NCBI RefSeq assembly: GCF_053078305.1
Contig: NZ_CP166879.1
Reading direction: 5' to 3' (one strand)
Length of the DNA: 64,000 nt
How positions within the stretch are numbered: the stretch's first letter is position 1; every line of letters starts with the position of its first letter. The position numbers and the translations under genes were made by a program. Under the pieces are notes generated by a model. That model saw only the letters and a program-made list of their open reading frames with translations. It made no database searches and was not told the origin of the DNA. Shown here piece by piece: positions 8,202 to 20,806 of this stretch.

Positions 8202-8875
8202 TGGTTGCCTCCTTTGCGAAGCTGGGCAGCAAAGTCAACTAACCACTCAGTCATTTCAACCTTCCCTATCAGGTCTGAACCAGGGTGCATACAGCAATCA
8301 CTCTGCGCCGCTTTGAAATCCTTATACTCATATTCTTGGGCCACCAGATTTTTTGCAGCTTCTATAGCAGCATCCACCCCCAGCGCCCGCACTTCAGACA
8401 GGAAAGCATCGGTGGCTGGCATATTTCCTGTTGCCTTCATGGCCTCCAAAATAACCAGAACGCCATCTCTCCCAACCTCCTCGCAGATAACCTCGGTGTT
8501 GTCGCCAACAACATCGCAGAATGCCTGAACTGCTTTACGAGCAAGTGCATTCTCCGCCGCCAGCGCCACAAGATTAGCTTCCAGCTCGGCAATACGTTTG
8601 CTTTGGGCTTCCCGTTCATCCAGCAGTGCCTGTACTACTTCAGGGTTGAAAGCTGCAATAAATTCTGCGTTGTTCTCTGCATTTTTCTGGTCATCAAAGC
8701 CAGGCCATTTGATAATGTCTCCGCAACGTTCATCCCCCGGCGTATGCACCGCATATGTATCAGTGCCCGGCGAAATGAATGCGACCCATTCGCCCTGGGT
8801 TGCCAGTTTTGCTATCTCACGTAGCGTCTGATAATTAATTTTTCTCACTGGTTGCCTCCTGGAAAATAACCGCAT
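8198..8875 (-). CDS. Ead/Ea22-like protein
   Basis: 225-aa ORF with central coiled-coil-like segment. Confidence 0.5.
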   Translation of the reverse strand: MRLFSRRQPVRKINYQTLREIAKLATQGEWVAFISPGTDTYAVHTPGDERCGDIIKWPGFDDQKNAENNAEFIAAFNPEVVQALLDEREAQSKRIAELEANLVALAAENALARKAVQAFCDVVGDNTEVICEEVGRDGVLVILEAMKATGNMPATDAFLSEVRALGVDAAIEAAKNLVAQEYEYKDFKAAQSDCCMHPGSDLIGKVEMTEWLVDFAAQLRKGGNQ

Positions 8876-9140
8876 GTCCCAGTTTCTCCGCCAGTGCCAG
8901 TTCTGCCTTAGCGCCTGCCGACCGCTGCCAGCCTTTCAGCATATAAACCGCATCCACACAACGAATCATTGCCATGCAAATATCCATGTACTGCGGCTGA
9001 GTCAGCCCGTCCGGAAGTACTGCCGGGTTTAAAACGGTATGCCCTTCCCGTTTCAGTGCTTCTTCCGCCCTGTGAAATGCCTCGCGGTTGAAATTTTCAT
9101 ATCCCGTCATTGGACCGGCGATATAAATGCTCACCCTCAC
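8835..9140 (-). CDS. DUF4406-like (nucleoside 2-deoxyribosyltransferase-like fold) protein
   Basis: 101-aa [16 protein letters not shown]...; small Rossmann-like protein common in phages. Confidence 0.45.
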   Translation of the reverse strand: MRVSIYIAGPMTGYENFNREAFHRAEEALKREGHTVLNPAVLPDGLTQPQYMDICMAMIRCVDAVYMLKGWQRSAGAKAELALAEKLGHAVIFQEATSEKN

Positions 9141-9541
9141 GCCTGAACCCTCCTGTCGAAATAAACGTAGTTATTCACTATGCGCAGCGGCATGCCTAAT
9201 TTTCTGGCAATTTCCCTTCTTTGCATGCCTCTCTGATGCAGTTGCCGCGCCAGCTCAATATCACGCTGAGAATATTTTGCTGACTGGTGATAATCACCCC
9301 GTAACATCATGCTGATACCCAGTTCCCGCGCTTTCGTCCTGACGGCTGACTCACTACGGCCAATCAGATAACCGATGCTTTCGACTCTCATCGTTCCCGC
9401 ACACTGCCGGAGTATCAGGATTTCAGCCCAGCTCCACTTCTTCCAGCCACTCACCGCTGCTGCCCTCTGGTGGCCGTAATATCCCGGAGAATATCCCTGT
9501 GTTTGTTCAGTTCCCGCAGCGCAGCACAGACTCGCTCCCAC
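9137..9541 (-). CDS. Hypothetical HTH-containing protein
   Basis: 134-aa ORF with sigma-70 region-4-like segment ([21 protein letters not shown]); start uncertain because of 91-nt overlap with upstream ORF. Confidence 0.4.
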
Positions 9542-10212
9542 TTCTGAACATCACTTTTCGCCCTGCGCAGCGCCAGGTTTGCCCTGCACAGGGACAGAAA
9601 AATCAGCTCATCTGCTTGCGTTTCGGTAAACGATGGCAACGACTGCACAATGTCCGCCACTGTTTCTGTTTTAATATCTTCCTGTGTTGCAGATTCCTGT
9701 ACTGGTAACGCAACACCTGCTGGCTGAGGAAAGGCCTTACCATCATTTTCCGTTACCGGCACGGCTTTCGGCTCTGCTGGTAAATTATCGCCCGGCATGC
9801 AGTAACGAAATTTACCGTTCTGATTTACGCGTGCCAGGCGTCCCGTTGCGGTTACCACCGCCAACGTGGAAGCAACCTTGCGAATGCTAACACCGAACTT
9901 ATCCGCCAGTTCCTCACACGTTTTAGCCCCCTCCTGACCGATAAACTCAATCATCATGTCTGCGGTAACTTTTTGTTCGACCTCCCCGGTCAGCACATCC
10001 GGTACTTCAGACTGTGCTGGCTGCTCTTCGGTTACCCCGGATTCACCTTCGCCAGCCAGAAACCAGATGTGACCCGCTTTATCAACAACGCCATTTCTTT
10101 TGAGTTCCCACAGTTCGTTGAGAACCTCTTCACGACTGATATCAAGCCGCTCAGCCAGTCCAACAGAGCTGGCTTTTCCCATTGCTTTCAGTGCGTCAAA
10201 AACGGTTTCCAT
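9451..10212 (-). CDS. Hypothetical early protein with N-terminal winged-helix-like domain
   Basis: 253-aa ORF downstream of the P-like gene. Confidence 0.4.
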
Positions 10213-10245
10213 TAAAATTTCCTCCTACAAAATCGCTTCTCAGAT

Positions 10246-10908
10246 TCAAATAAAACCAGCTGCCTTCCGGCGTTCGTATTCCTGTTTCAGCCGTTCAATT
10301 GGCGTTGGCCCTTGCGGGTGTTTCGCCCCTTCCAGTTGTCGTCGCACTGGCGGAACACTCATCCCGTTACCAACATGCTTTGCCCATTTCGTCAGTTGCC
10401 GTTCCGCAAGTCGTTTTAACTCACCCTGCGTCATCTGGCGCTCAATCCCTCTGGTACGCATTTCGAGGCAGATGTGGTACAGCACAGGCTGTGGCCACGG
10501 GTATTTATCACTCCCGTCGTATCGCCAGGATTCATTGCGCCAGCGCCGGTACTCTTCCATCACGGCATCCACCGTAAGACCAAATGGATTTGCCCCACTC
10601 TCCGAAATCAGCGCAACAAACTCAGCCAGGTCCGGGGGCCACGTTTCACCCGCCCGACAGCGGTCCATGCACTGACGGCAGACCTGCCGGATTTGCTGTT
10701 CAGTCATCGCACCAATCTGGGCAATCCAGAGCTTCGAAGGTGCGGCCCCGTTCTTCTGAGTCCAGCGGTTCGAATACACCTCCCCCATAAGCTCCCACAG
10801 CTTCCAGGCCGTTTCCGTTGCTGATAAATCCGTTGTCACGTTCCCACTGTTCGCGTGCTGCCCGGATTTCCTGAACTGCCCGTGATGCCGTGCCACCTGA
10901 TGCTGCAT
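10246..10908 (-). CDS. Replication protein P-like (helicase loader); start uncertain
   Basis: 220-aa ORF resembling lambda P in the segments I recall; no Walker motifs; 209-nt overlap with the O-like gene suggests a later start (ATG at 10788 or 10707). Confidence 0.5.
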   Translation of the reverse strand: MQHQVARHHGQFRKSGQHANSGNVTTDLSATETAWKLWELMGEVYSNRWTQKNGAAPSKLWIAQIGAMTEQQIRQVCRQCMDRCRAGETWPPDLAEFVALISESGANPFGLTVDAVMEEYRRWRNESWRYDGSDKYPWPQPVLYHICLEMRTRGIERQMTQGELKRLAERQLTKWAKHVGNGMSVPPVRRQLEGAKHPQGPTPIERLKQEYERRKAAGFI

Positions 10909-11710
10909 GGCTTACCCCCTTGCTGACTGGTTTTACCTGTGCCCTGACGTGCTGCACGTGGCGGGCAAATTTCTGCTCCCACTGAACCTGCGTGAAAACC
11001 TTCCCCTCCGCCATCCAGTAATCCCGGAATGCGACAAGCTCAGCAGGTGTAAATTCCGGCTCAGGCAGAGCCATACCCCACACTGCTGCCCGTTGTCGAA
11101 AATCCGGCGACGGCTGCCAGACAGTGGTCATCGAAAATTTCCCGATCGGTTCGCTCAGGCCGTCCAGGTATTCAGGTTCGGCTGTCTGCAACGGCGCACC
11201 ATGCAACTCACTGGTCGGAATACTCTCGCGTTCACGCACGTTATGTGTGGGGTTTAATTCTTTTAGATCTGTATCTTTATTAGTTGCTTTTGTGTTTGCG
11301 TCATGTTCAAACACAACACCAACATTTGTTTGAACACCTGTTAAATCTCTCTCTTGTTTTGTTTGAACATATACTTCCTTTCTGCTTCTTCTGGCCTGAA
11401 CAGATGCTTTTCCGGCGGCTGATTTTTTGGTCAATTTTTCCCTGACTGATGCCAGATCTTCCTCAATCCGAAGATGCACCCATTCATCGCCGTTATCGCA
11501 AAAAAACTCACGCAAGGATGGTTCCACATCAGCCCATCGCTCGTTAGTCAGACGGGAAATTTTTGCCAGCCTGTTTTTAGGTATTGGTTTCCCTGTTTGC
11601 CAGTAATTGAACATCAGCAACAAATACGCACCGTGCTCCTCTGCGGACAAATGCATGGTGTCAGCCAGGTAATCAGCTATGTACAGTTGCATGTATGGTA
11701 ATGCGGCCAT
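10700..11710 (-). CDS. Replication initiator O-like / YdaU-like (DUF1376) protein
   Basis: ATG at 11710 gives MAALPYMQLYIADYL... N-terminus; iteron-like repeats lie inside the coding sequence. Confidence 0.6.
   Translation of the reverse strand: MAALPYMQLYIADYLADTMHLSAEEHGAYLLLMFNYWQTGKPIPKNRLAKISRLTNERWADVEPSLREFFCDNGDEWVHLRIEEDLASVREKLTKKSAAGKASVQARRSRKEVYVQTKQERDLTGVQTNVGVVFEHDANTKATNKDTDLKELNPTHNVRERESIPTSELHGAPLQTAEPEYLDGLSEPIGKFSMTTVWQPSPDFRQRAAVWGMALPEPEFTPAELVAFRDYWMAEGKVFTQVQWEQKFARHVQHVRAQVKPVSKGVSHAASGGTASRAVQEIRAAREQWERDNGFISNGNGLEAVGAYGGGVFEPLDSEERGRTFEALDCPDWCDD
11300..11372. repeat. Putative replication origin iterons
   Basis: Three copies of TGTTYRAACA (11304-11313, 11327-11336, 11361-11370) followed by AT-rich DNA, inside the O-like gene. 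Confidence 0.4.
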
Positions 11711-11796
11711 AATTGCCTCATCTTGTGACGAACCATCCTCTGGTGATATTCTGTGATTCCCCAATCAACAGAATCAGCAGGGGGCTGGCATAAATA

Positions 11797-12234
11797 TCAA
11801 TGCACCACAACAGACTCGCCGGATGACCCGCCGTCGCTGAAATACGCTTTCCGGTAAACGGCCTGGACAGCATCATCATGTGCATCAATTGCCGTGCTCA
11901 ACGCTTCCTGCGCCGCCAGTAATGCACGGCGCTCAACAGTGTCAAAAATACTGAGGTGATAACGCAGTTCACGCGGAAGAACAGTCAGGATAGCCGGAAT
12001 TAGTGCCTGAATTTTTTCAACAGCATCAGGCGTATCCTTTTCAAGCCAGCGAAAAATATTTTGTATATTCAATCCAATACCCTCTGTCGTAGAGGTGTCA
12101 TGCATTGGTGGATAAGTCATTTCAAGCTCAAAATATGCTGTCGCTATATCATCAGCGATTTTTTTGCGCCCTACCCTCGGATAAAGCAGCCACGCATTCA
12201 TCGCCATGCGGATGTGCTCATGCTTGATTTTCAT
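11797..12234 (-). CDS. YdaT-like protein (cII-position gene)
   Basis: 145-aa ORF directly downstream of the cro-like gene, as ydaT is in Rac. Confidence 0.45.
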   Translation of the reverse strand: MKIKHEHIRMAMNAWLLYPRVGRKKIADDIATAYFELEMTYPPMHDTSTTEGIGLNIQNIFRWLEKDTPDAVEKIQALIPAILTVLPRELRYHLSIFDTVERRALLAAQEALSTAIDAHDDAVQAVYRKAYFSDGGSSGESVVVH

Positions 12235-12491
12235 GAATCAACTCCCGCCGCTGCTTGTGCGTTAGCCTGATACTCAACAGGTAAACCATCGGTTGGATTA
12301 GGGTATTTATCAGGGCGCAATTCATGCGGAGTTACTCCCCAGTCAAGCGCCTCACATGCTGGTATAACCTCCTCCGCTGGCACTCGTTTTTTAAACCACC
12401 CACTTATGGTTTGCGGTGTTTTACCAAGACGACGCCCTAATTCTGATTGGCTCATTATTGACAGGATTTTCACTTGAGTACTTTTTTGCAT
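12231..12491 (-). CDS. Cro-like HTH regulator (YdaS-like)
   Basis: 86-aa ORF with XRE-type HTH (SQSELGRRLGKTPQTISGW); divergent from the cI-like gene. Confidence 0.6.
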   Translation of the reverse strand: MQKSTQVKILSIMSQSELGRRLGKTPQTISGWFKKRVPAEEVIPACEALDWGVTPHELRPDKYPNPTDGLPVEYQANAQAAAGVDS

Positions 12492-12519
12492 GTTTCCCTC
12501 CGAACTTTACGATGACACC

Positions 12520-12566
12520 GATGATTACAAATTTAAATTTAAATTTCAACTTCTATTTGTAATGCC
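12520..12566. promoter_or_regulatory. Putative oR operator/promoter region
   Basis: Inverted TTACAAAT...ATTTGTAA arms (12525-12562) in the 126-bp divergent intergenic region; related motif recurs at 13765-13819. Confidence 0.4.
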
Positions 12567-12617
12567 ACTTATCAATTTTTTCTGTAGGATCGCGGAACTA
12601 GTTTACGAGGGGTGGTG

Positions 12618-13010
12618 ATGATCTTTGTAAAACGCCTTCAGCAGGTGTTGCAGGAATTGAATATAAACCAGTCAGAGCTGGGAAGACGTCTTGGTGTAAA
12701 ACCCCAATCCGTGCAAGGTTGGTTGAAAGGCGTGATGCCAAGAATGGATAAACTGGAAAAATTAGCAGAGCTCTCACAACATCCCGTCCATTGGTTCTTT
12801 ATGGAAGAAGAAACTCTCGGCGATAAAATGGCTGTATCCAGTAATGACAACCAACCGCAACTTACAGAACAACAACGAAAAATCATATCGCTTTTAGATG
12901 AGTTACCTCAAAGCGACGCAGAGCAGATCATTCGTGATATGGAGCAAAAACGCGATTTCTATAAACGGAAACTTGAAGAGTTACTGCGGCAGAAAAACAA
13001 AACTGCCTGA
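12618..13010 (+). CDS. cI-like repressor (RacR-like, HTH only, no peptidase domain)
   Basis: 130-aa product from ATG 12618 (track ORF begins at GTG 12612); XRE HTH NQSELGRRLGVKPQSVQGW; RBS GAGGGG upstream. Confidence 0.6.
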   Translation: MIFVKRLQQVLQELNINQSELGRRLGVKPQSVQGWLKGVMPRMDKLEKLAELSQHPVHWFFMEEETLGDKMAVSSNDNQPQLTEQQRKIISLLDELPQSDAEQIIRDMEQKRDFYKRKLEELLRQKNKTA

Positions 13011-13056
13011 TGCATTCCTTTTCTGGAACGAGCATCAGGCAAATGACTAGCAGATT

Positions 13057-13416
13057 TTATAATCCAACCAGGCTTTCCAGGGGGATACCAAATTGATTAT
13101 GAAGACGGCGAATCATTGGTAACGTAAGGCTTCTGGTACCATTCAACACCTCATAAACCCGATTTTTTTTCCCAATTGCGGGTTCCAAATCTTTCACAGT
13201 CAGCCCCTGCTGTTCCATGCGAAATCTTATAGCTTCAATTGGGGATGGTGGCTCAATGGGATAATGTTTTTTTTCATATTCCTCTATTAGCAAACACATC
13301 ACCTCAAAAAAATCCCCCTCAGGCGTGTCAATTTCGGGCTCATTGTCGAACATGGGTTCAACAGCACGCAACGCGGCTTCATAATCTTGCTCTGTACGAA
13401 TAGGTTTGATGTTCAT
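13057..13416 (-). CDS. higA: HigA-family antitoxin (C-terminal HTH)
   Basis: 119-aa ORF; C-terminal HTH LTLPMIRRLHNQFGIPLESLV resembles K-12 HigA; directly follows the toxin gene (toxin-first order typical of hig loci). Confidence 0.8.
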   Translation of the reverse strand: MNIKPIRTEQDYEAALRAVEPMFDNEPEIDTPEGDFFEVMCLLIEEYEKKHYPIEPPSPIEAIRFRMEQQGLTVKDLEPAIGKKNRVYEVLNGTRSLTLPMIRRLHNQFGIPLESLVGL

Positions 13417-13418
13417 GC

Positions 13419-13721
13419 TTACTCCAGTTCGATGGTATCAGCATCAATAGCATCGTATTCCTTGTGGTTTCCGATGAATTTAACAAATACCCATCCTCGC
13501 TGATACGCAATTGCAACAATTAAACGGTAATGATTACCTTTTATGTTGAATACCACGCGCCGGTTTTTCAATATACTGGCCGTTCGGTATTGTGCCTTAA
13601 TGTCTGCTGGGCTTTTCCAGTCAGCTTTTGCCGCCTCATCCACCCATGCCCTTAGCGGTTGTTCTGCATCAGGATTCTCCGCCCAAAAATCCCTGAGTGT
13701 TTTAACTGAGATAATCTTCAT
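13419..13721 (-). CDS. higB: HigB-family toxin (RelE/ParE superfamily mRNA interferase)
   Basis: 100 aa from ATG 13721 (track ORF extends to TTG 13766); C-terminal FIGNHKEYD motif as in K-12 HigB; 2-nt gap to higA. Confidence 0.75.
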   Translation of the reverse strand: MKIISVKTLRDFWAENPDAEQPLRAWVDEAAKADWKSPADIKAQYRTASILKNRRVVFNIKGNHYRLIVAIAYQRGWVFVKFIGNHKEYDAIDADTIELE

Positions 13722-13764
13722 AACTGTATAGTAGTCCCATTTTGGGACTGATGCAACAGCTCGC

Positions 13765-13819
13765 AATTACAAATTTAATAATAAACATGTTGACCAGTTA
13801 AATTTTAATTTGTAAATTG
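13765..13819. promoter_or_regulatory. Putative oL operator region, overlapping the presumed higBA promoter
   Basis: AATTACAAATTTAA ... TTAATTTGTAAATT inverted arms, same core as the oR motif. Confidence 0.35.
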
Positions 13820-13995
13820 TATCCATAAACCCACCCCGCCCCACAGAACGCAGGGCAATACTTCGAGTTACCCGGCAGTGGTCAGGGGTTAAGTAGCCAG
13901 CCTGAGGCGTATGAACATGACGGCGGGGATTACGTTTAACTATGCAGCAGGTTTTTTGTTCCGCTACCCCGGCGTTAAGGGGAAATGAGGTCAAC

Positions 13996-14148
13996 ATGGA
14001 TACGCTCAATCTTGGCAACAACGAATCTCTGGTATGCGGTGTGTTCCCTAACCAGGACGGCACGTTTACCGCGATGACGTATACCAAAAGTAAAAAGTTT
14101 AAAACCGAAGCTGGCGCGCGTCGCTGGTTAGCCAGAAACACTAACTGA
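13996..14148 (+). CDS. YdaF-like small protein (DUF1391)
   Basis: 50-aa product MDTLNLGNNESLVCGVFPNQDGTFTAMTYTKSKKFKTE... closely matches Rac YdaF; RBS GAGG 6 nt upstream. Confidence 0.6.
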   Translation: MDTLNLGNNESLVCGVFPNQDGTFTAMTYTKSKKFKTEAGARRWLARNTN

Positions 14149-14960
14149 TTAGCACCAGTAAAAACAGGTTGCCACTGGTTAATTTACCCTGAAAAGTCAG
14201 GGCACAACAGAAAGCACACGGCGAAGGCGTCTTTTCCTTAGAAGGCTTGTCGTTAGATTTCTTCGACCGTGTGCTTCCGGTTGTGGCAATCCGCGAAATG
14301 GCGCGGCGGTAAATATGGCTGGGGGTTTTTATTTCTTTTCCCCTCATTGAGGACACCGGGTTGTCAGGTTGACCATATGCCTGAGTGACAACCCCGCCAC
14401 AACATCTCCATGTTTCAATGGCAGTGGTACCTTTGGCGGCATCAGTTTATTAGCTTTCTGATGTCCGCCCTTTTTAAAGTGAATTTTGTGATGCGGTGAA
14501 TGCGGCTAAGCGCACGCGGAACAGTTAAAACCGTAAAGTGGTCTTTTACGGGGCGTAACGGGCATACTTCTGTATTCCGGCGTTAATTGTTAACTGGTTA
14601 ACGTCACCTGGAGGCACCAGGCACTGCATCGACAAAGTTCACTTCGGTGATGAAAGGTAAGAGAAAATGTTGAATGTAGCTATTGAAAACCAGAACGGGT
14701 GGAATTATAGTGCACCTGCACCTCATAAAGCGGGTGCCGGGATTGCTACCCCGATGTTCATCATGGCGCATAACCGCGCTCAGGCGTTTTTTTTATGCGT
14801 AATGCACAGCCACATTCAGATTATGGTGGGGCGTGCAGGGCAGCCGCAAGGCTGGCCGGGTTCCATGATGACCGGTTGTAGCAACCCTGTGCGTCTCACC
14901 ACCCATGAGATTGCTACCTCCGGTGGTGAGTTAATGAAATTCATCATGGAGGCTGCCATC

Positions 14961-15518
14961 ATGGCTACTATCCCTGCCCTTTCTCACCCTGAAATTACTA
15001 TCGCCAATGGGCGTGCTGTTACATCCTCTTTAGCTGTTGCCGAGTATTTCCGGAAACCACACAAAGATGTACTGGCAAAAATTTCACGTCTAGACTGTTC
15101 AGCAGAATTCACTGAGCGAAATTTTTCGCCCAGTGAATATACCGACTCAACCGGGCGCAAACTCCCTATGTACCAAATCACCAAAAACGGCTTCGTTTTC
15201 CTGGTGATGGGCTTCACCGGCAAAAAAGCCGCTGCATTTAAAGAAGCCTACATCGCTGAGTTCGATCGCATGGAGAAAGAACTGCGCCAGAATAACGCCC
15301 CGTCTCCCGACAAAATGATTCACGGGGACGGACGTACCCTGGTTATCCGTCTCGACGAACACGGCAATATCAAATTCACTGAAACCGTTCCTGATGGTGC
15401 AATGGTCTGCACCCTGGATACCTTCCAGTTTTATCTGGAGAAACAAGGCTGGACTCTTGTAAACCGGAGCGCAATTAAAAATATGACTGTGGAGCAATTA
15501 CTAAAAATTCATTGTTGA
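14961..15518 (+). CDS. Rha-family phage regulatory protein
   Basis: Rha N-terminal signature ITIANGRAVTSSLAVAEYFRKPHKDVL; GGAGG RBS before ATG 14961; track ORF begins at 14667 but the 5' extension looks non-coding. Confidence 0.65.
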   Translation: MATIPALSHPEITIANGRAVTSSLAVAEYFRKPHKDVLAKISRLDCSAEFTERNFSPSEYTDSTGRKLPMYQITKNGFVFLVMGFTGKKAAAFKEAYIAEFDRMEKELRQNNAPSPDKMIHGDGRTLVIRLDEHGNIKFTETVPDGAMVCTLDTFQFYLEKQGWTLVNRSAIKNMTVEQLLKIHC

Positions 15519-15528
15519 GGACGCGATA

Positions 15529-15717
15529 ATGGAAACGTTATTACCAAACGTTAATACGTCTGAAGGGTGTTTTGATATTGGTATTCTGCTCAGTAACCGG
15601 GAGTTTACTGAAGATGCCATTAAGATGAGAAAATATGAGCCTTATCTTCTCAATGATAATTCCATACTCTCCAGAATTGCCCTTCTTAAACTTGGTATTT
15701 TCGGAGGGCAGCAGTGA
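15529..15717 (+). CDS. Hypothetical small protein (62 aa, cytosolic)
   Basis: RBS GAGGA upstream; start abuts Rha stop; stop overlaps next start (GTGA). Confidence 0.35.
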   Translation: METLLPNVNTSEGCFDIGILLSNREFTEDAIKMRKYEPYLLNDNSILSRIALLKLGIFGGQQ

Positions 15718-15902
15718 CTTCTGCATTTGCACTGGTGATGACGGTTTTTCTTATAACGGGTGAGCCACAGAATGTGATTACCGGAATTTATGCCAGTAAA
15801 GAATCATGCCTCCGTGCAAGAGACGAGCAAAAAATTTCTGGCGAATGCCTCCCGTTAAAAAAAGTATCGCTGTACCTGAATAACGAAATACCGGCTGGAT
15901 AA
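15714..15902 (+). CDS. Hypothetical small membrane/exported protein (62 aa)
   Basis: GTG start with GGAGGG RBS; hydrophobic N-terminal segment SAFALVMTVFLITG; two Cys. Confidence 0.35.
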   Translation: MTSAFALVMTVFLITGEPQNVITGIYASKESCLRARDEQKISGECLPLKKVSLYLNNEIPAG

Positions 15903-15994
15903 TCCACCAGCCATATTAACGCCATACCCGTTGATTAAGCATGCCAGCAATGGCAGGGGTTCGTACAACCTTAAAATAGTTATGAGGTTTATCC

Positions 15995-18433
15995 ATGAGC
16001 ACTGATAAAGAAGAATTTTCGCTATATTGCGAAGCAAAAAATGACAAGGTCAGAAAACGCCTTGGGATTAAAGGAGGTTTTTACTGGACTACAGCAAAAA
16101 AATTATCTGTTGCCATCTCACGGTGCGTTGTTGCAATGGACGAGGCAGGCTACGACGCTGATGATTTCAAAAAACCTGTCCGCGTCCATTTCCCCGTTGT
16201 GAATGACCTTCCACCGGAAGGCGTGTTTGATACCGAATTCTGCAACCGCTATGAAAAAGGCGGGGAAGATGGCATCACAATGATATTTATAGCGCCTTCC
16301 CCCTCAGTTCAGGACAAACCAGCCAGCACTGACAATACCAACGTCAATGGCGAAGACATGGCTGAGATTGAGGATAATATGCTCCTGCCGATTTCCGGTC
16401 AGGAACTGCCCATTCGCTGGCTTGCGCAACATGGCAGCGAAAAACCGGTAACGCACGTTTCACGGGAAGAACTTCAGGCATTACATATCGCACGAGCTGA
16501 AGAACTGCCGGCTGTTACTGCCCTGGCTATTTCCCACAACACAAAGCTGCTCGACCCGCTGGAGATTCGCGACCTTCATAAACTGGTACGCGACACAGAC
16601 AAAGTTTTCCCTAATCCCGTTAATTCCAGTCTGGGGTTAATGACTGCTTTTTTCGAAGCATACCTGGACGCTGACTATACCGATCGAGGTCTGCTGACAA
16701 AAGAGTGGATGAAAGGAAATCGTGTTTCTCGCATCACCCGCACGGCTTCCGGTGCAAATGCCGGTGGCGGAAATAAAACCGATCGTAATCCTGACTTAGT
16801 ACACACCCTCGATACTCTGGATGTGGAGGCTGCAGCAGCCACACTTCCGATGGATTTTAATATTTATGAAATACCCGTGAGCGTTTATCGTCGCGCAAAA
16901 GAAATCGTCCTGAAAAAAGAAAGTCCGTTCAGGGAATGGTCCGCAGCACTTCGCGCAACCCCTGGTATCCTGGACTATTCCCGCGCAGCTATTTTTGCAC
17001 TTATCCGGAGCGCCCACCCTGAGTTTTATCACTACCCGGGACGCCTTCAGGGGTATATCAATGCCAACCTGACAGAAACTGATCACGAGAATCCCACAGC
17101 TGAAACGCTCATGGCTGCCCGGCATACACCGGAAAAAGATATCCTGGAAGAAATTAACGGCGGACTGGCTGCTGAGTGCAAAACAGAAGAAGAAAAAAAT
17201 GATGAAGAAAACCCGCAACCATCTGGCGCAATGGCAGATGAACAGGCAACGGCTGAAACAATGGCAGCGGATACAGTTGAACATCATCAGGACCCGCAGC
17301 CGCTGGATGACAAGTCACAGGTAAAAGTTACTGCTGAAGAAGTAAATAAAATTATGGAGGCAGCAGACATCAGTCGACCAGATGCCGACAAATTGCTTGC
17401 CGCTTCTCGTGGTGAGTTTGTTGAAGGGATTAGCGACCCGAATGATTCGAAATGGGTTAAGGGGATTGAAACCTGCGATTCTGTGAACCAGAACCAGCAA
17501 GAAACGGAACAGAACGGTCAGAAAGCGGAACAAAACAGCCCAAATGCGTTACAAAACGAGCCAGAAACGAAACAACCTGAACCAGTAGTGCAACAGGAAG
17601 AGGAAAAAGTTTGTACCGCATGCAATCAGACTGGTGGTGGTAACTGCCCTGATTGTGGCGCAGTGATGGGGGACGCAACCTACCAGGAGACATTCAACGA
17701 AGAAAGCCAGGATGAAGCCCGGGAAAAAGATCCGGAGGAAATGGAAAGTGCCGGACTCCCGAACAAGGAGTGCACCGAAGGCGATCAACATGCCAATGGC
17801 AATAATGAAACAGGCGAGACAGCAAATCCCTTAATTAAGGTGAACGGTCATCGTGAAATCACATCCACCAGCAGGTTATGGCACCATCTGATGATTGACC
17901 TTGAAACAATGGGCAAAAATCCTGACGCACCAATAGCCTCAATAGGCGCTGTATTTTTCGATCCACAAACCGGAGAGCAGGGGCCTGAATTCAGCAAAAT
18001 AATTGATATGGGTACATGTGGCGGCACTGTAGACATAAGCACCATCGAATGGTGGCTTCAACGCTCTGGCGAAGCCCGTGCCGCCATTTTAGCTGATCGA
18101 ATACCGCTTGATGATGCGCTTTTACAATTACGGGAATTTATAGACGAAAACTCCGGTGAGTTTTTTGTTCAGGTCTGGGGAAATGGAGCCAACTTCGACA
18201 ACGTGATTTTACGCCGTTCATATGAACGGCAGGAGATCCCCTGCCCGTGGCGTTACACCAATGATCGTGATGTAAGAACGATTGTTGCCCTGGGGCTGGT
18301 GATGGATTTCGATGCTCGAAGTGTCATCACATTTGAGGGTGAACGCCATAATGCCCTGCACGATGCGCGTTACCAGGCAAAATACGTTTCAGCTATCTGG
18401 CAAAAACTGTTCCCGAATCAGGCTGATTTTTAA
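15995..18433 (+). CDS. Large protein with C-terminal DEDDh-type 3'-5' exonuclease domain, central acidic low-complexity region and zinc-ribbon-like Cys cluster
   Basis: 812-aa ORF with RBS; Exo I MIDLETMG, Exo [14 protein letters not shown], Exo [16 protein letters not shown]; [16 protein letters not shown]; sits between Rha module and xis/int. Confidence 0.6.
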
Positions 18434-18499
18434 TGTTCAACCCATATCGCCGCCCACAAGCTATAGTGGCGGCGGTCATGCTGTAAGGCACGTGACCAC

Positions 18500-18751
18500 A
18501 TGTACGAATTAACTCTATCGCCAGCAGAAATTCAAGAGATCACGAGATACGAACGGTATACAAAACAGCAACAACAGTTAAGGTTGCACGGTATCCCATT
18601 TGTACCCGGTCCTAAAAACGAACCAATAGTTCTTCGCAGTGATGTCCCGCGCGGACTGACTGCGATACCGAAAGTATCTGAACTGGTTTCTGCTGACCCC
18701 GATTTTGAGGCGCTGAACAATGGGAAGACCAAGAAAAAACAAAAAAGATAA
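18500..18751 (+). CDS. Putative excisionase (Xis-position small basic protein)
   Basis: 83-aa ORF immediately upstream of and overlapping int, as lambda xis does. Confidence 0.4.
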   Translation: MYELTLSPAEIQEITRYERYTKQQQQLRLHGIPFVPGPKNEPIVLRSDVPRGLTAIPKVSELVSADPDFEALNNGKTKKKQKR

Positions 18752-19739
18752 TGCACTACCGCCACGTGTTAGATCGAATGGTTACAGTTACGTATGGAAA
18801 CCCGAAGGAAGCACAAAAACTATAGGGCTAGGAAGAGTGCGGGAAACCAGCATAGCTAAAGTCTGGCAGAATTATGAACTGGAAAAAGCAAAACGCCACA
18901 ACATAATGACCGTCGCTAAATTATGGCACATGTTTATGGATTCCCCCGCATTTACAGAACTGGCCCCCAGAACCCAAAAAGATTATCGGCAACATCAGAG
19001 GGCGTTACTGGCAGTCTTCGGAAAAGTACTGGCTGATAATGTAAAAATTGAGCAGGTAAGAATTTTCATGGATAAACGGGGGATTGAGAGCAAGACCCAG
19101 GCAAACCATGAACTGGCAAGTCTCAGTCGTGTATACGGGTGGGGATATGAGCGTGGATATGTGAAGAATAACCCATGCAAAGGAGTCAGGAAATTTACGC
19201 TTAAAGCCCGCACTGTTTACATCACAGATGAACAGTATGCGGCGATATATGCGGAAGCAATACCACAGTTACGCATTGCAATGGAGATATCCTATCTTTG
19301 TGCGGCAAGACTCGGTGATGTGCTCGAGCTGAAATGGCAGGATATTATGGATAAAGGAATCTACATTGAGCAAAACAAGACCGGCACCAAACAAATCAAG
19401 GAATGGTCTCCACGATTACGAACCGCGATCCAGTTAGCCAGAAATGTATCTTCAGGCACATGTGAATATGTGATCAACACAACCAAGGGCGGGAAGGTCA
19501 TAGCTAAAACGCTAAACAACTGGTGGAACCAGGCTAAACACGCAGCCGAGAAAAAATCCGGCGTCCCGTTTGGGTGCAATTTCCATGACATAAAAGCCAA
19601 AGGAATATCAGATTACGAAGGAAGCAGTCGCGACAAACAGATTTTCAGTGGACATAAAACAGAAAATCAGGTGTTGATTTATGATCGTAAAACAAAAATC
19701 ACGCCGACACTGGATTTGCCACTTGTGGTCAGCAAGTAG
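18720..19739 (+). CDS. int: Lambda-family tyrosine integrase
   Basis: 339-aa ORF; N-terminus MGRPRKNKKDNALPPRVRSNGYSYVWKP...GLGR parallels lambda Int; 3' end faces the att site. Confidence 0.9.
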   Translation: MGRPRKNKKDNALPPRVRSNGYSYVWKPEGSTKTIGLGRVRETSIAKVWQNYELEKAKRHNIMTVAKLWHMFMDSPAFTELAPRTQKDYRQHQRALLAVFGKVLADNVKIEQVRIFMDKRGIESKTQANHELASLSRVYGWGYERGYVKNNPCKGVRKFTLKARTVYITDEQYAAIYAEAIPQLRIAMEISYLCAARLGDVLELKWQDIMDKGIYIEQNKTGTKQIKEWSPRLRTAIQLARNVSSGTCEYVINTTKGGKVIAKTLNNWWNQAKHAAEKKSGVPFGCNFHDIKAKGISDYEGSSRDKQIFSGHKTENQVLIYDRKTKITPTLDLPLVVSK

Positions 19740-19880
19740 GCAACTCAGGAAATTTTCTGGCAAAAAAGACTTGGTATACTAACTCTGAAAGCTCCCTAAC
19801 AGCCTGATTTTTCTAGGTGTTAAGTTTGGTTAATTTTTCAGCTATTTTTCGTATTGCATTGATTTTTATTTATTTTTCAT

Positions 19881-19940
19881 CGGTCTTGAAAACCGGCGAC
19901 CCGAAAGGGTTCCAGAGTTCGAATCTCTGCGCTTCCGCCA
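19881..19940 (+). other. 3' 60 nt of tRNA-Ser (serT) without the 5' part: prophage attachment-site core at the right junction
   Basis: CGGTCTTGAAAACCGGCGACCCGAAAGGGTTCCAGAGTTCGAATCTCTGCGCTTCCGCCA matches serT positions 29-88 as I recall the K-12 gene; preceding DNA is AT-rich phage arm. Confidence 0.85.
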
Positions 19941-19948
19941 GATAAGAT

Positions 19949-19979
19949 AAGGGGTTAGCTAAATGCTAACCCCTTTTTC
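19949..19979 (+). terminator. serT intrinsic terminator
   Basis: GGGGTTAGCT-AAAT-GCTAACCCC hairpin followed by TTTTTC. Confidence 0.6.
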
Positions 19980-20146
19980 TTTTGCCTGTCGAAATTCTCA
20001 GGGCGTTATATTTGCTTAATGACCTGATAATCCGCTGTTAAACCTGTTCCAGATCAAATGCGTAAAGATGGGTAAAACTTCTGGGTGCCCTTACGCATTA
20101 TCATTATGCTGCTTAATTAATTACATCTGTCATAGAGAGTGACTCA

Positions 20147-20806
20147 ATGGATCGTATTGTTAGTTCTTCACATGACCGTACATCACTGCTTAGCACCCAT
20201 AAGGTGCTGCGTAATACCTATTTTCTGCTGAGCCTGACGCTGGCCTTTTCGGCGATTACCGCAACTGCCAGTACGGTGCTGATGCTGCCATCTCCGGGTC
20301 TGATTCTGACGCTGGTGGGTATGTATGGTTTGATGTTCCTGACCTATAAAACGGCGAATAAGCCGACCGGGATTATCTCCGCATTCGCCTTTACCGGTTT
20401 TCTGGGTTATATCCTCGGACCAATTCTGAACACCTATCTGTCTGCCGGAATGGGTGACGTAATCGCTATGGCACTGGGCGGAACGGCGTTAGTGTTCTTC
20501 TGCTGCTCTGCATATGTGCTGACCACCCGCAAAGATATGTCGTTCCTCGGCGGTATGCTGATGGCGGGTATTGTGGTGGTGCTGATTGGTATGGTTGCTA
20601 ATATCTTCCTGCAACTGCCTGCTCTGCATCTGGCGATCAGCGCGGTCTTCATTTTGATCTCCTCTGGCGCTATTTTGTTTGAAACCAGCAACATCATTCA
20701 TGGCGGTGAAACGAACTATATTCGTGCCACGGTTAGCCTGTATGTTTCGCTGTACAACATCTTCGTCAGCCTGCTGAGCATTCTGGGCTTCGCCAGCCGC
20801 GATTAA
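20147..20806 (+). CDS. yccA: Inner membrane protein YccA (BI-1 family, FtsH modulator)
   Basis: 219-aa product [28 protein letters not shown]... matches E. coli YccA full length. Confidence 0.95.

Follow-up and report, generated by a model that had tools for sequence, protein, structure and literature searches.

The 64,000-nt stretch of contig NZ_CP166879.1 (assembly GCF_053078305.1) analysed here, referred to below as the window, passes from lambdoid phage genes to chromosomal DNA within a tRNA-Ser gene, of which only the 3′ part is present. This raises the question of how the gene came to be broken at this point, and where its intact counterpart should be sought. The original prediction was that the right junction of a prophage lies here inside serT, and that the complete gene is reconstituted at the other prophage end, outside the window. 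The analysis supports, with a probability of about 95%, the site-specific integration of a lambdoid temperate phage into serT, the tRNA-Ser(UGA) gene, with integrase and site as in the Sp4/CP-933M prophage of E. coli O157:H7.

The serT fragment and the prophage boundary

Positions 19881-19940 of the window (+ strand) are identical to nt 29-88 of serT, without a mismatch in 60 positions; they represent the last 60 of the 88 nt of the E. coli gene and end with CCA. The reference gene is annotated as tRNA-Ser with anticodon UGA in K-12 and in strain FHI_NMBU_10. This block, the attachment-site identity block, comprises the anticodon stem-loop, the long variable arm, the T arm, the 3′ strand of the acceptor stem and CCA. 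The base preceding it, T19880, differs from C28 of serT, and the layout of 19860-19990 is ...tttttcaT followed by CGGTCTTGAAAACCGGCGACCCGAAAGGGTTCCAGAGTTCGAATCTCTGCGCTTCCGCCA and then by gataagataaggggttagctaaatgctaaccccttttttctttt. The block occurs once in the window, even if three mismatches are tolerated; none of 100 shuffled windows contained a match, and the chance expectation is 0. The 5′ 28 nt of serT have no copy anywhere in the 64 kb. The tRNA gene therefore begins mid-gene at 19881, as noted before, and a complete serT immediately adjacent to it was looked for and not found. The same 60 nt are present in K-12 serT, in the attP of phage Evi and at both prophage ends in two other genomes.

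ARAGORN identified three tRNAs elsewhere in the window and none at 19881-19940, while in a related genome it called the full 88-nt serT, with the anticodon at nt 35-37, and nothing at the fragment on the int side. Free-RNA folding of the 88-nt serT gave no cloverleaf, and the anticodon position was taken from ARAGORN. A search of 19000-20600 against Rfam at a permissive threshold returned no tRNA-family match, as expected of a truncated gene. Two other Rfam matches were judged to be due to chance, namely RAGATH-19 at 19848-19971, which overlaps the tRNA fragment and the terminator but at 24 bits stays below the gathering score of 85.6, and a sub-threshold match of ctRNA_p42d that sits on the terminator. 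To judge from its sequence, the displaced 60 nt in the window is inert, being without a promoter, the 5′ strand of the acceptor stem and the D arm.

BLAST comparison of the whole window with 47.8 kb of the K-12 chromosome showed that collinearity begins exactly at 19881, which corresponds to serT nt 29, and continues as a single block to position 64000 with 98.4% identity; the alignment contains no break indicating a further large insertion in 19881-64000. In K-12 the site is unoccupied, and hyaA, serT and yccA follow one another without an insert. One prophage boundary is fixed in this way to the base, at 19880/19881, a result chiefly of value for annotation, and the junction brings up no new biological question. 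The description of this point as the right junction is correct in the orientation of the window, but not in the lambda convention or on the K-12 map, where the int-proximal junction is attL.

The fragment is followed by the native intrinsic terminator of serT (19949-19984, +), found by a terminator scan, in which an 11-bp hairpin (19949-19975) precedes TTTCTTTT, the T-run. The hairpin and T-run are identical to the K-12 sequence downstream of serT. The first chromosomal gene past the junction is yccA (20147-20806, +), taken from the list of open reading frames, which matches Pfam Bax1-I, encodes a modulator of the FtsH protease and carries the yccA annotation in K-12 as well as in every matching record. 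Both the terminator and yccA had been noted at this place before.

The chromosomal block 19881-64000 includes serT, yccA, ompA, pqiABC and the elf fimbrial genes and extends to asnS, in the same order as in K-12. The base directly after CCA (19941) is G in the window and in O157:H7 PV15-279, and A in K-12, FHI_NMBU_10 and the phage attP, so that in hosts of the A type the identity between attB and attP reaches about 65 nt.

Integrase and excisionase

The gene bordering the junction on the phage side (18720-19739, +) encodes a tyrosine integrase of 339 amino acids (Pfam Phage_integrase, PF00589) and is transcribed toward the attachment site, with 141 nt between int and the core. Residues 1-318 of the protein align with residues 1-339 of lambda Int (1z1b; phmmer E-value 4e-19), the N-terminal arm-binding region included. 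The start of int is overlapped by an excisionase-like gene of 83 codons (18500-18751, +), the product of which matches Pfam DUF4224 (E-value 2e-10) and excisionase families of PHROG (phrog_1266, E-value 1e-19).

The canonical catalytic residues of tyrosine recombinases are R-K-H-R-H-Y. In the alignment, ARLGD, NKTGTK and GHK of the window integrase stand opposite QRVGD, SKTGVK and GHK of lambda Int, and the alignment ends at query residue 318, before the presumed Y321. The HDIK stretch stands opposite HELR of the lambda protein, so that Lys falls on the second Arg of the catalytic set. R212, K235, H308/R311 and H333 of lambda Int are taken to lie in QRVGD, SKTGVK, HELR and GHK, respectively. 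Though unusual, HDIK (residues 289-292, window 19584-19595) is common to all four integrases of the group targeting serT, including that of the isolated phage Evi.

The attachment site arms

The region between int and the tRNA fragment (19741-19880, +) represents the int-proximal phage arm, or P′ arm in lambda terms. With int ending at 19739 and a GC content of the arm of 30.7% against 50% for the window, AT-rich phage DNA lies downstream of int, as had been noted earlier. Phage Evi attP and the prophages of FHI_NMBU_10 and O157 all keep the arm, which is missing from K-12 attB.

An octanucleotide, TTGGTATA, is found once in the int-side arm (19771-19778, +), at the same position in all four elements, and is repeated directly in the distal arm, with two or three copies. 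All five copies in the Evi locus (7.4 kb) fall inside attP, compared with 0.21 expected, and this was not reproduced in any of 200 shuffles. Such distribution suggests that the TTGGTATA repeats are good candidates for arm-type Int sites. A consensus scan for IHF sites revealed two candidates with one mismatch each to WATCAANNNNTTR, at 19797-19809 (-) and at 19852-19864, and the phage Evi counterpart of the former is an exact match to the consensus. The sites in the window arm, none of them better than one mismatch, may be regarded only as weak candidates for IHF binding.

In the phage attP, a terminator hairpin consisting of AAGGGGTTACCAAATGGTAGCCCCTT and a T-run is located directly after the 60-nt block, and since attP carries this hairpin of its own, a phage-supplied terminator follows the regenerated serT. 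The hairpin (L001 4442-4475 and L002 2350-2394; compare 19941-19984 in the window) is a diverged copy of the native serT terminator, the similarity extending about 36-45 nt beyond CCA. It may be proposed that in the integrases of the serT-targeting group Lys does the work of the second catalytic Arg, and that their attP captured the 3′ part of the tRNA gene together with a diverged serT terminator; we hold the chances for and against this proposal to be even. If it is true, the Lys at the Arg position and the captured terminator would add no more than small variants to an established mechanism.

Both prophage ends in related genomes

Two relatives in which both ends of the element are available were inspected. 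The distance from core to core is 46,423 bp in FHI_NMBU_10 and 46,443 bp in O157:H7 PV15-279. In both, the distal core lies inside an intact, annotated serT of 88 nt, with hyaA adjoining, at the tail-fibre end of the prophage.

A five-way alignment was made of K-12 attB, the window, both ends of the FHI_NMBU_10 prophage and phage Evi attP. The K-12 attB consists of the hyaA side, the full serT, the native terminator and yccA. The window and the int side of the FHI_NMBU_10 prophage have the phage arm, the 60-nt block, the native terminator and yccA. At the distal side of FHI_NMBU_10, the hyaA side is followed by the full serT (28 host nt plus the block), the phage-type hairpin, the TTGGTATA repeats and the tail-fibre genes. 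In phage Evi attP the int-side arm and the 60-nt block are joined to the same hairpin and repeats as at the distal side of FHI_NMBU_10. The alignment thus displays the classic BOP′/POB′/POP′/BOB′ pattern of site-specific integration. The presence of the block in Evi attP, together with the start of K-12 collinearity at 19881, upholds the identification of the fragment as a displaced attachment-site core.

Model of integration

The features described above can be combined in the following scheme. The copy of serT nt 29-88 carried by attP would recombine with chromosomal serT through the lambda-type tyrosine integrase. In the anticodon arm of serT, the stem is formed by CCGGT (nt 28-32) and, on the 3′ side, by ACCGG (nt 40-44), with CTTGAAA (nt 33-39) as the loop. 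The first base of the identity block, nt 29, is the second one in the 5′ strand of this stem, and the block reaches from there as far as CCA; it is this starting point that assigns the junction to the classic anticodon-centred integration into tRNA genes. By its likeness to the anticodon-centred class of tDNA integration (PMC4383910), the crossover probably occurred in the anticodon loop. The exchange is placed here indirectly, since a block shared in full by the two ends leaves no trace of the crossover point. Strand exchange would most likely take place within the 7-nt loop CTTGAAA (19885-19891, +), the putative 7-bp overlap region, with Int cutting at both loop edges, and the halves of the anticodon stem that flank it, (T)CGGT and ACCGG, would serve as inverted core-type Int sites.

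As a result, the 5′ 28 nt of the chromosomal gene and its promoter, located on the hyaA side, would be joined to the 3′ part and the terminator supplied by the phage, and a functional serT would thereby be kept at the tail-fibre end of the prophage. With the host promoter and the 28 nt reading into the phage 3′ part and the phage terminator, expression of the tRNA would be preserved. The original 3′ 60 nt, with its own terminator and yccA, would be left at the int end, and this is the presumed origin of the fragment at 19881-19940. By analogy with the relatives, an intact serT is likely to lie upstream of the window; its expected 3′ neighbours are AATAATCAAGGGGTTACC..., the TTGGTATA repeats and the tail-fibre genes, with hyaA on the 5′ side. 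If the prophage has the size of about 46.4 kb from core to core found in the relatives, its distal end should be located roughly 20-30 kb to the left of the window start. For annotation it follows that hyaA, an intact serT and a phage arm are to be sought at the other end of the prophage.

Occupancy of the site and alternative explanations

Of 5426 complete E. coli genomes, 742 have the int-junction-yccA arrangement, counted when at least 80% of a 2.2-kb query was matched, which puts the occupancy of the serT/yccA hotspot, where Sp4/CP-933M and some of the Stx2-converting phages integrate, at about 14%. Full-length serT was found in 5425 of the 5426, and the total number of places matching serT is 6262. 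Taken together, these numbers mean that the occupied genomes carry one intact gene and at least one fragment. Some genomes hold up to four serT-matching places, which shows that tandem or multiple elements occur at this site.

This last circumstance gives some weight to the possibility that the element in the window is a decayed or rearranged remnant, in which the int-side junction survives but the distal one has been deleted, inverted or split off by further tandem elements; such an element could no longer be excised, and the distance between the cores would not give the prophage length. The window indeed stops short of the distal end, and decay is plain to see in the O157 relative, in which IS elements have inserted and the terminase, portal and J genes are frameshifted. 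However, the window retains an intact int, xis-like gene and 60-nt core, the closest relative, FHI_NMBU_10, has a complete-looking prophage of 46.4 kb between two cores, and even the decayed O157 copy still keeps both of its cores. Decay to this extent is therefore considered unlikely.

Much less probable is that serT was merely truncated by an unrelated insertion or deletion and never regenerated, the fragment being a dead pseudogene of a lost tRNA. The window, taken by itself, shows just the 3′ fragment that this would leave, but full-length serT is kept in practically every complete genome counted above, those bearing the junction included, and the phage attP itself brings the 60 nt needed to rebuild serT together with a terminator. 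To our knowledge, no E. coli tRNA other than that encoded by serT reads UCA, and the gene is considered essential. Finally, although phages do carry tRNA genes, three of them in this window, a chance or paralogous likeness to a phage-borne tRNA-like sequence, unrelated to integration, is refuted by the five-way alignment and by a 60-nt match that is exact, has a chance expectation of zero, coincides exactly with the BLAST boundary of K-12 collinearity and lies where the empty K-12 site has the whole serT.

Comparison with known systems

Site-specific integration into serT, the preferred reading, has close parallels. In O157:H7 PV15-279, a prophage that fits the published descriptions of Sp4 (Sakai) and CP-933M (EDL933) occupies the same site, with the 60-nt core at both ends, an integrase 95% identical to that of the window and likewise the order yccA, core, int, the DUF4224 gene and exonuclease. 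Relative to the O157 element the window prophage is a mosaic, differing in the immunity and replication region, where it has a HigB-type toxin-antitoxin pair versus RelE/RelB of O157, and the DUF1376/DnaT genes. The O157 copy, decayed by IS elements, carries tccP2/espV at its distal end.

Phage Evi (LR597642), a temperate coliphage, shares the same int, the serT block, the TTGGTATA motifs and the terminator-like hairpin after the block; its int-attP stretch is 91.5% identical at the DNA level. It differs in being a free genome of 40 kb with contiguous arms (POP′) and in the arm sequences, which diverge by about 10-15%. Evi was isolated from infant faeces (PMC10910852), and the attP with the 60-nt block therefore belongs to a real free phage.

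Phage lambda has a homologous Int, from the N-terminal to the catalytic region, and the same arrangement, with int reading toward att and its start overlapped by a small xis-like gene. The AT-rich arms with repeated candidate arm-type sites and IHF-like sites are also lambda-like. However, lambda integrates at a 15-bp core between gal and bio, whereas the target in the window is a tRNA gene with a 60-nt block; the DUF4224-family excisionase and the Lys aligned at the second catalytic Arg are further differences.

The anticodon-centred class of integration into tRNA genes was reportedly catalogued by Williams in 2002. The window matches this ‘A’ class in the tyrosine integrase gene by the site, in the displaced 3′ fragment and in the block extending 3′ from the anticodon stem as far as the end of the gene, and differs from it in nothing material. 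The length of the block, 60 nt, is due solely to the long variable arm of tRNA-Ser. In this class the regenerated gene marks the other end of the element, which for the group of the window was seen in the two relatives. Among the islands in the Islander database, 2083 of 3919 are anticodon-centred and 3760 leave a 3′ fragment (PMC4383910), and a regenerated tDNA with a displaced 3′ fragment is described there as a general principle (PMC4383910).

The serT/yccA integration site is already known, common and ordinary. CP-933M of strain EDL933 was mapped between yccK (tusE) and serT (PMC5552260), and yccA has been reported as the place where Sp4 is inserted in O157:H7, and likewise prophages converting to Stx2e, Stx2k and Stx2a (PMC9431244; PMC8065619).

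Prophage content of the window

The prophage DNA present in the window (1-19880), about 18 kb of it beyond the excisionase-like gene, represents the early and regulatory half of a lambdoid element and continues past the left edge; homology to K-12 is found only from 19881. The late genes would be located beyond this edge. From the junction outward, the gene order is int, the DUF4224 gene, an exonuclease VIII-like gene (15995-18433, +), an ORF of the Rha family, the HigB/HTH pair, divergently oriented cI-like and cro-like HTH genes, DUF1376/DnaT, DUF968, RusA, Q, and two DNA methyltransferases with a trio of tRNA genes. Pfam searches of the prophage part identified the exonuclease, the Q antiterminator (3721-4416, -), RusA, DUF968, the DUF1376/DnaT replication protein, the cro-like and cI-like HTH proteins and the HigB toxin, while the Rha-family ORF was named after the annotation of the related FHI_NMBU_10 prophage.

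Among complete E. coli genomes the best match to the prophage part is the serT prophage of FHI_NMBU_10, covering 81% of it with 97% identity, and no complete E. coli genome in the collection searched holds the whole prophage segment.

The site is used by some Stx2-converting phages, and genes stxA/stxB were sought between the tRNA trio and the downstream esterase and lysis genes; in the part of the window downstream of the trio no Stx-sized gene pair is present. The slot after the trio is taken by an ORF resembling N6-methyltransferases (790-1725), and the nearest relative of the tRNA-trio segment has the esterase gene directly behind that of the methyltransferase. Within the part covered by the window, nothing marks the prophage as Stx-converting.

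Beside the immunity region, an ORF for a HigB-family toxin (13419-13766, -) is followed by that for an HTH protein (13057-13416, -). The two genes (13057-13766) likely constitute a toxin-antitoxin pair and are annotated likewise in FHI_NMBU_10.

The phage-borne tRNA genes identified by ARAGORN (1811-2062, -), located downstream of Q, comprise Arg-TCT, Arg-TCG and a tRNA with the anticodon CAT. The same arrangement of a tRNA trio downstream of Q is annotated in the related lambdoid prophages examined. The CAT-anticodon tRNA was assigned to Met by ARAGORN and is annotated as tRNA-Ile in the relatives.
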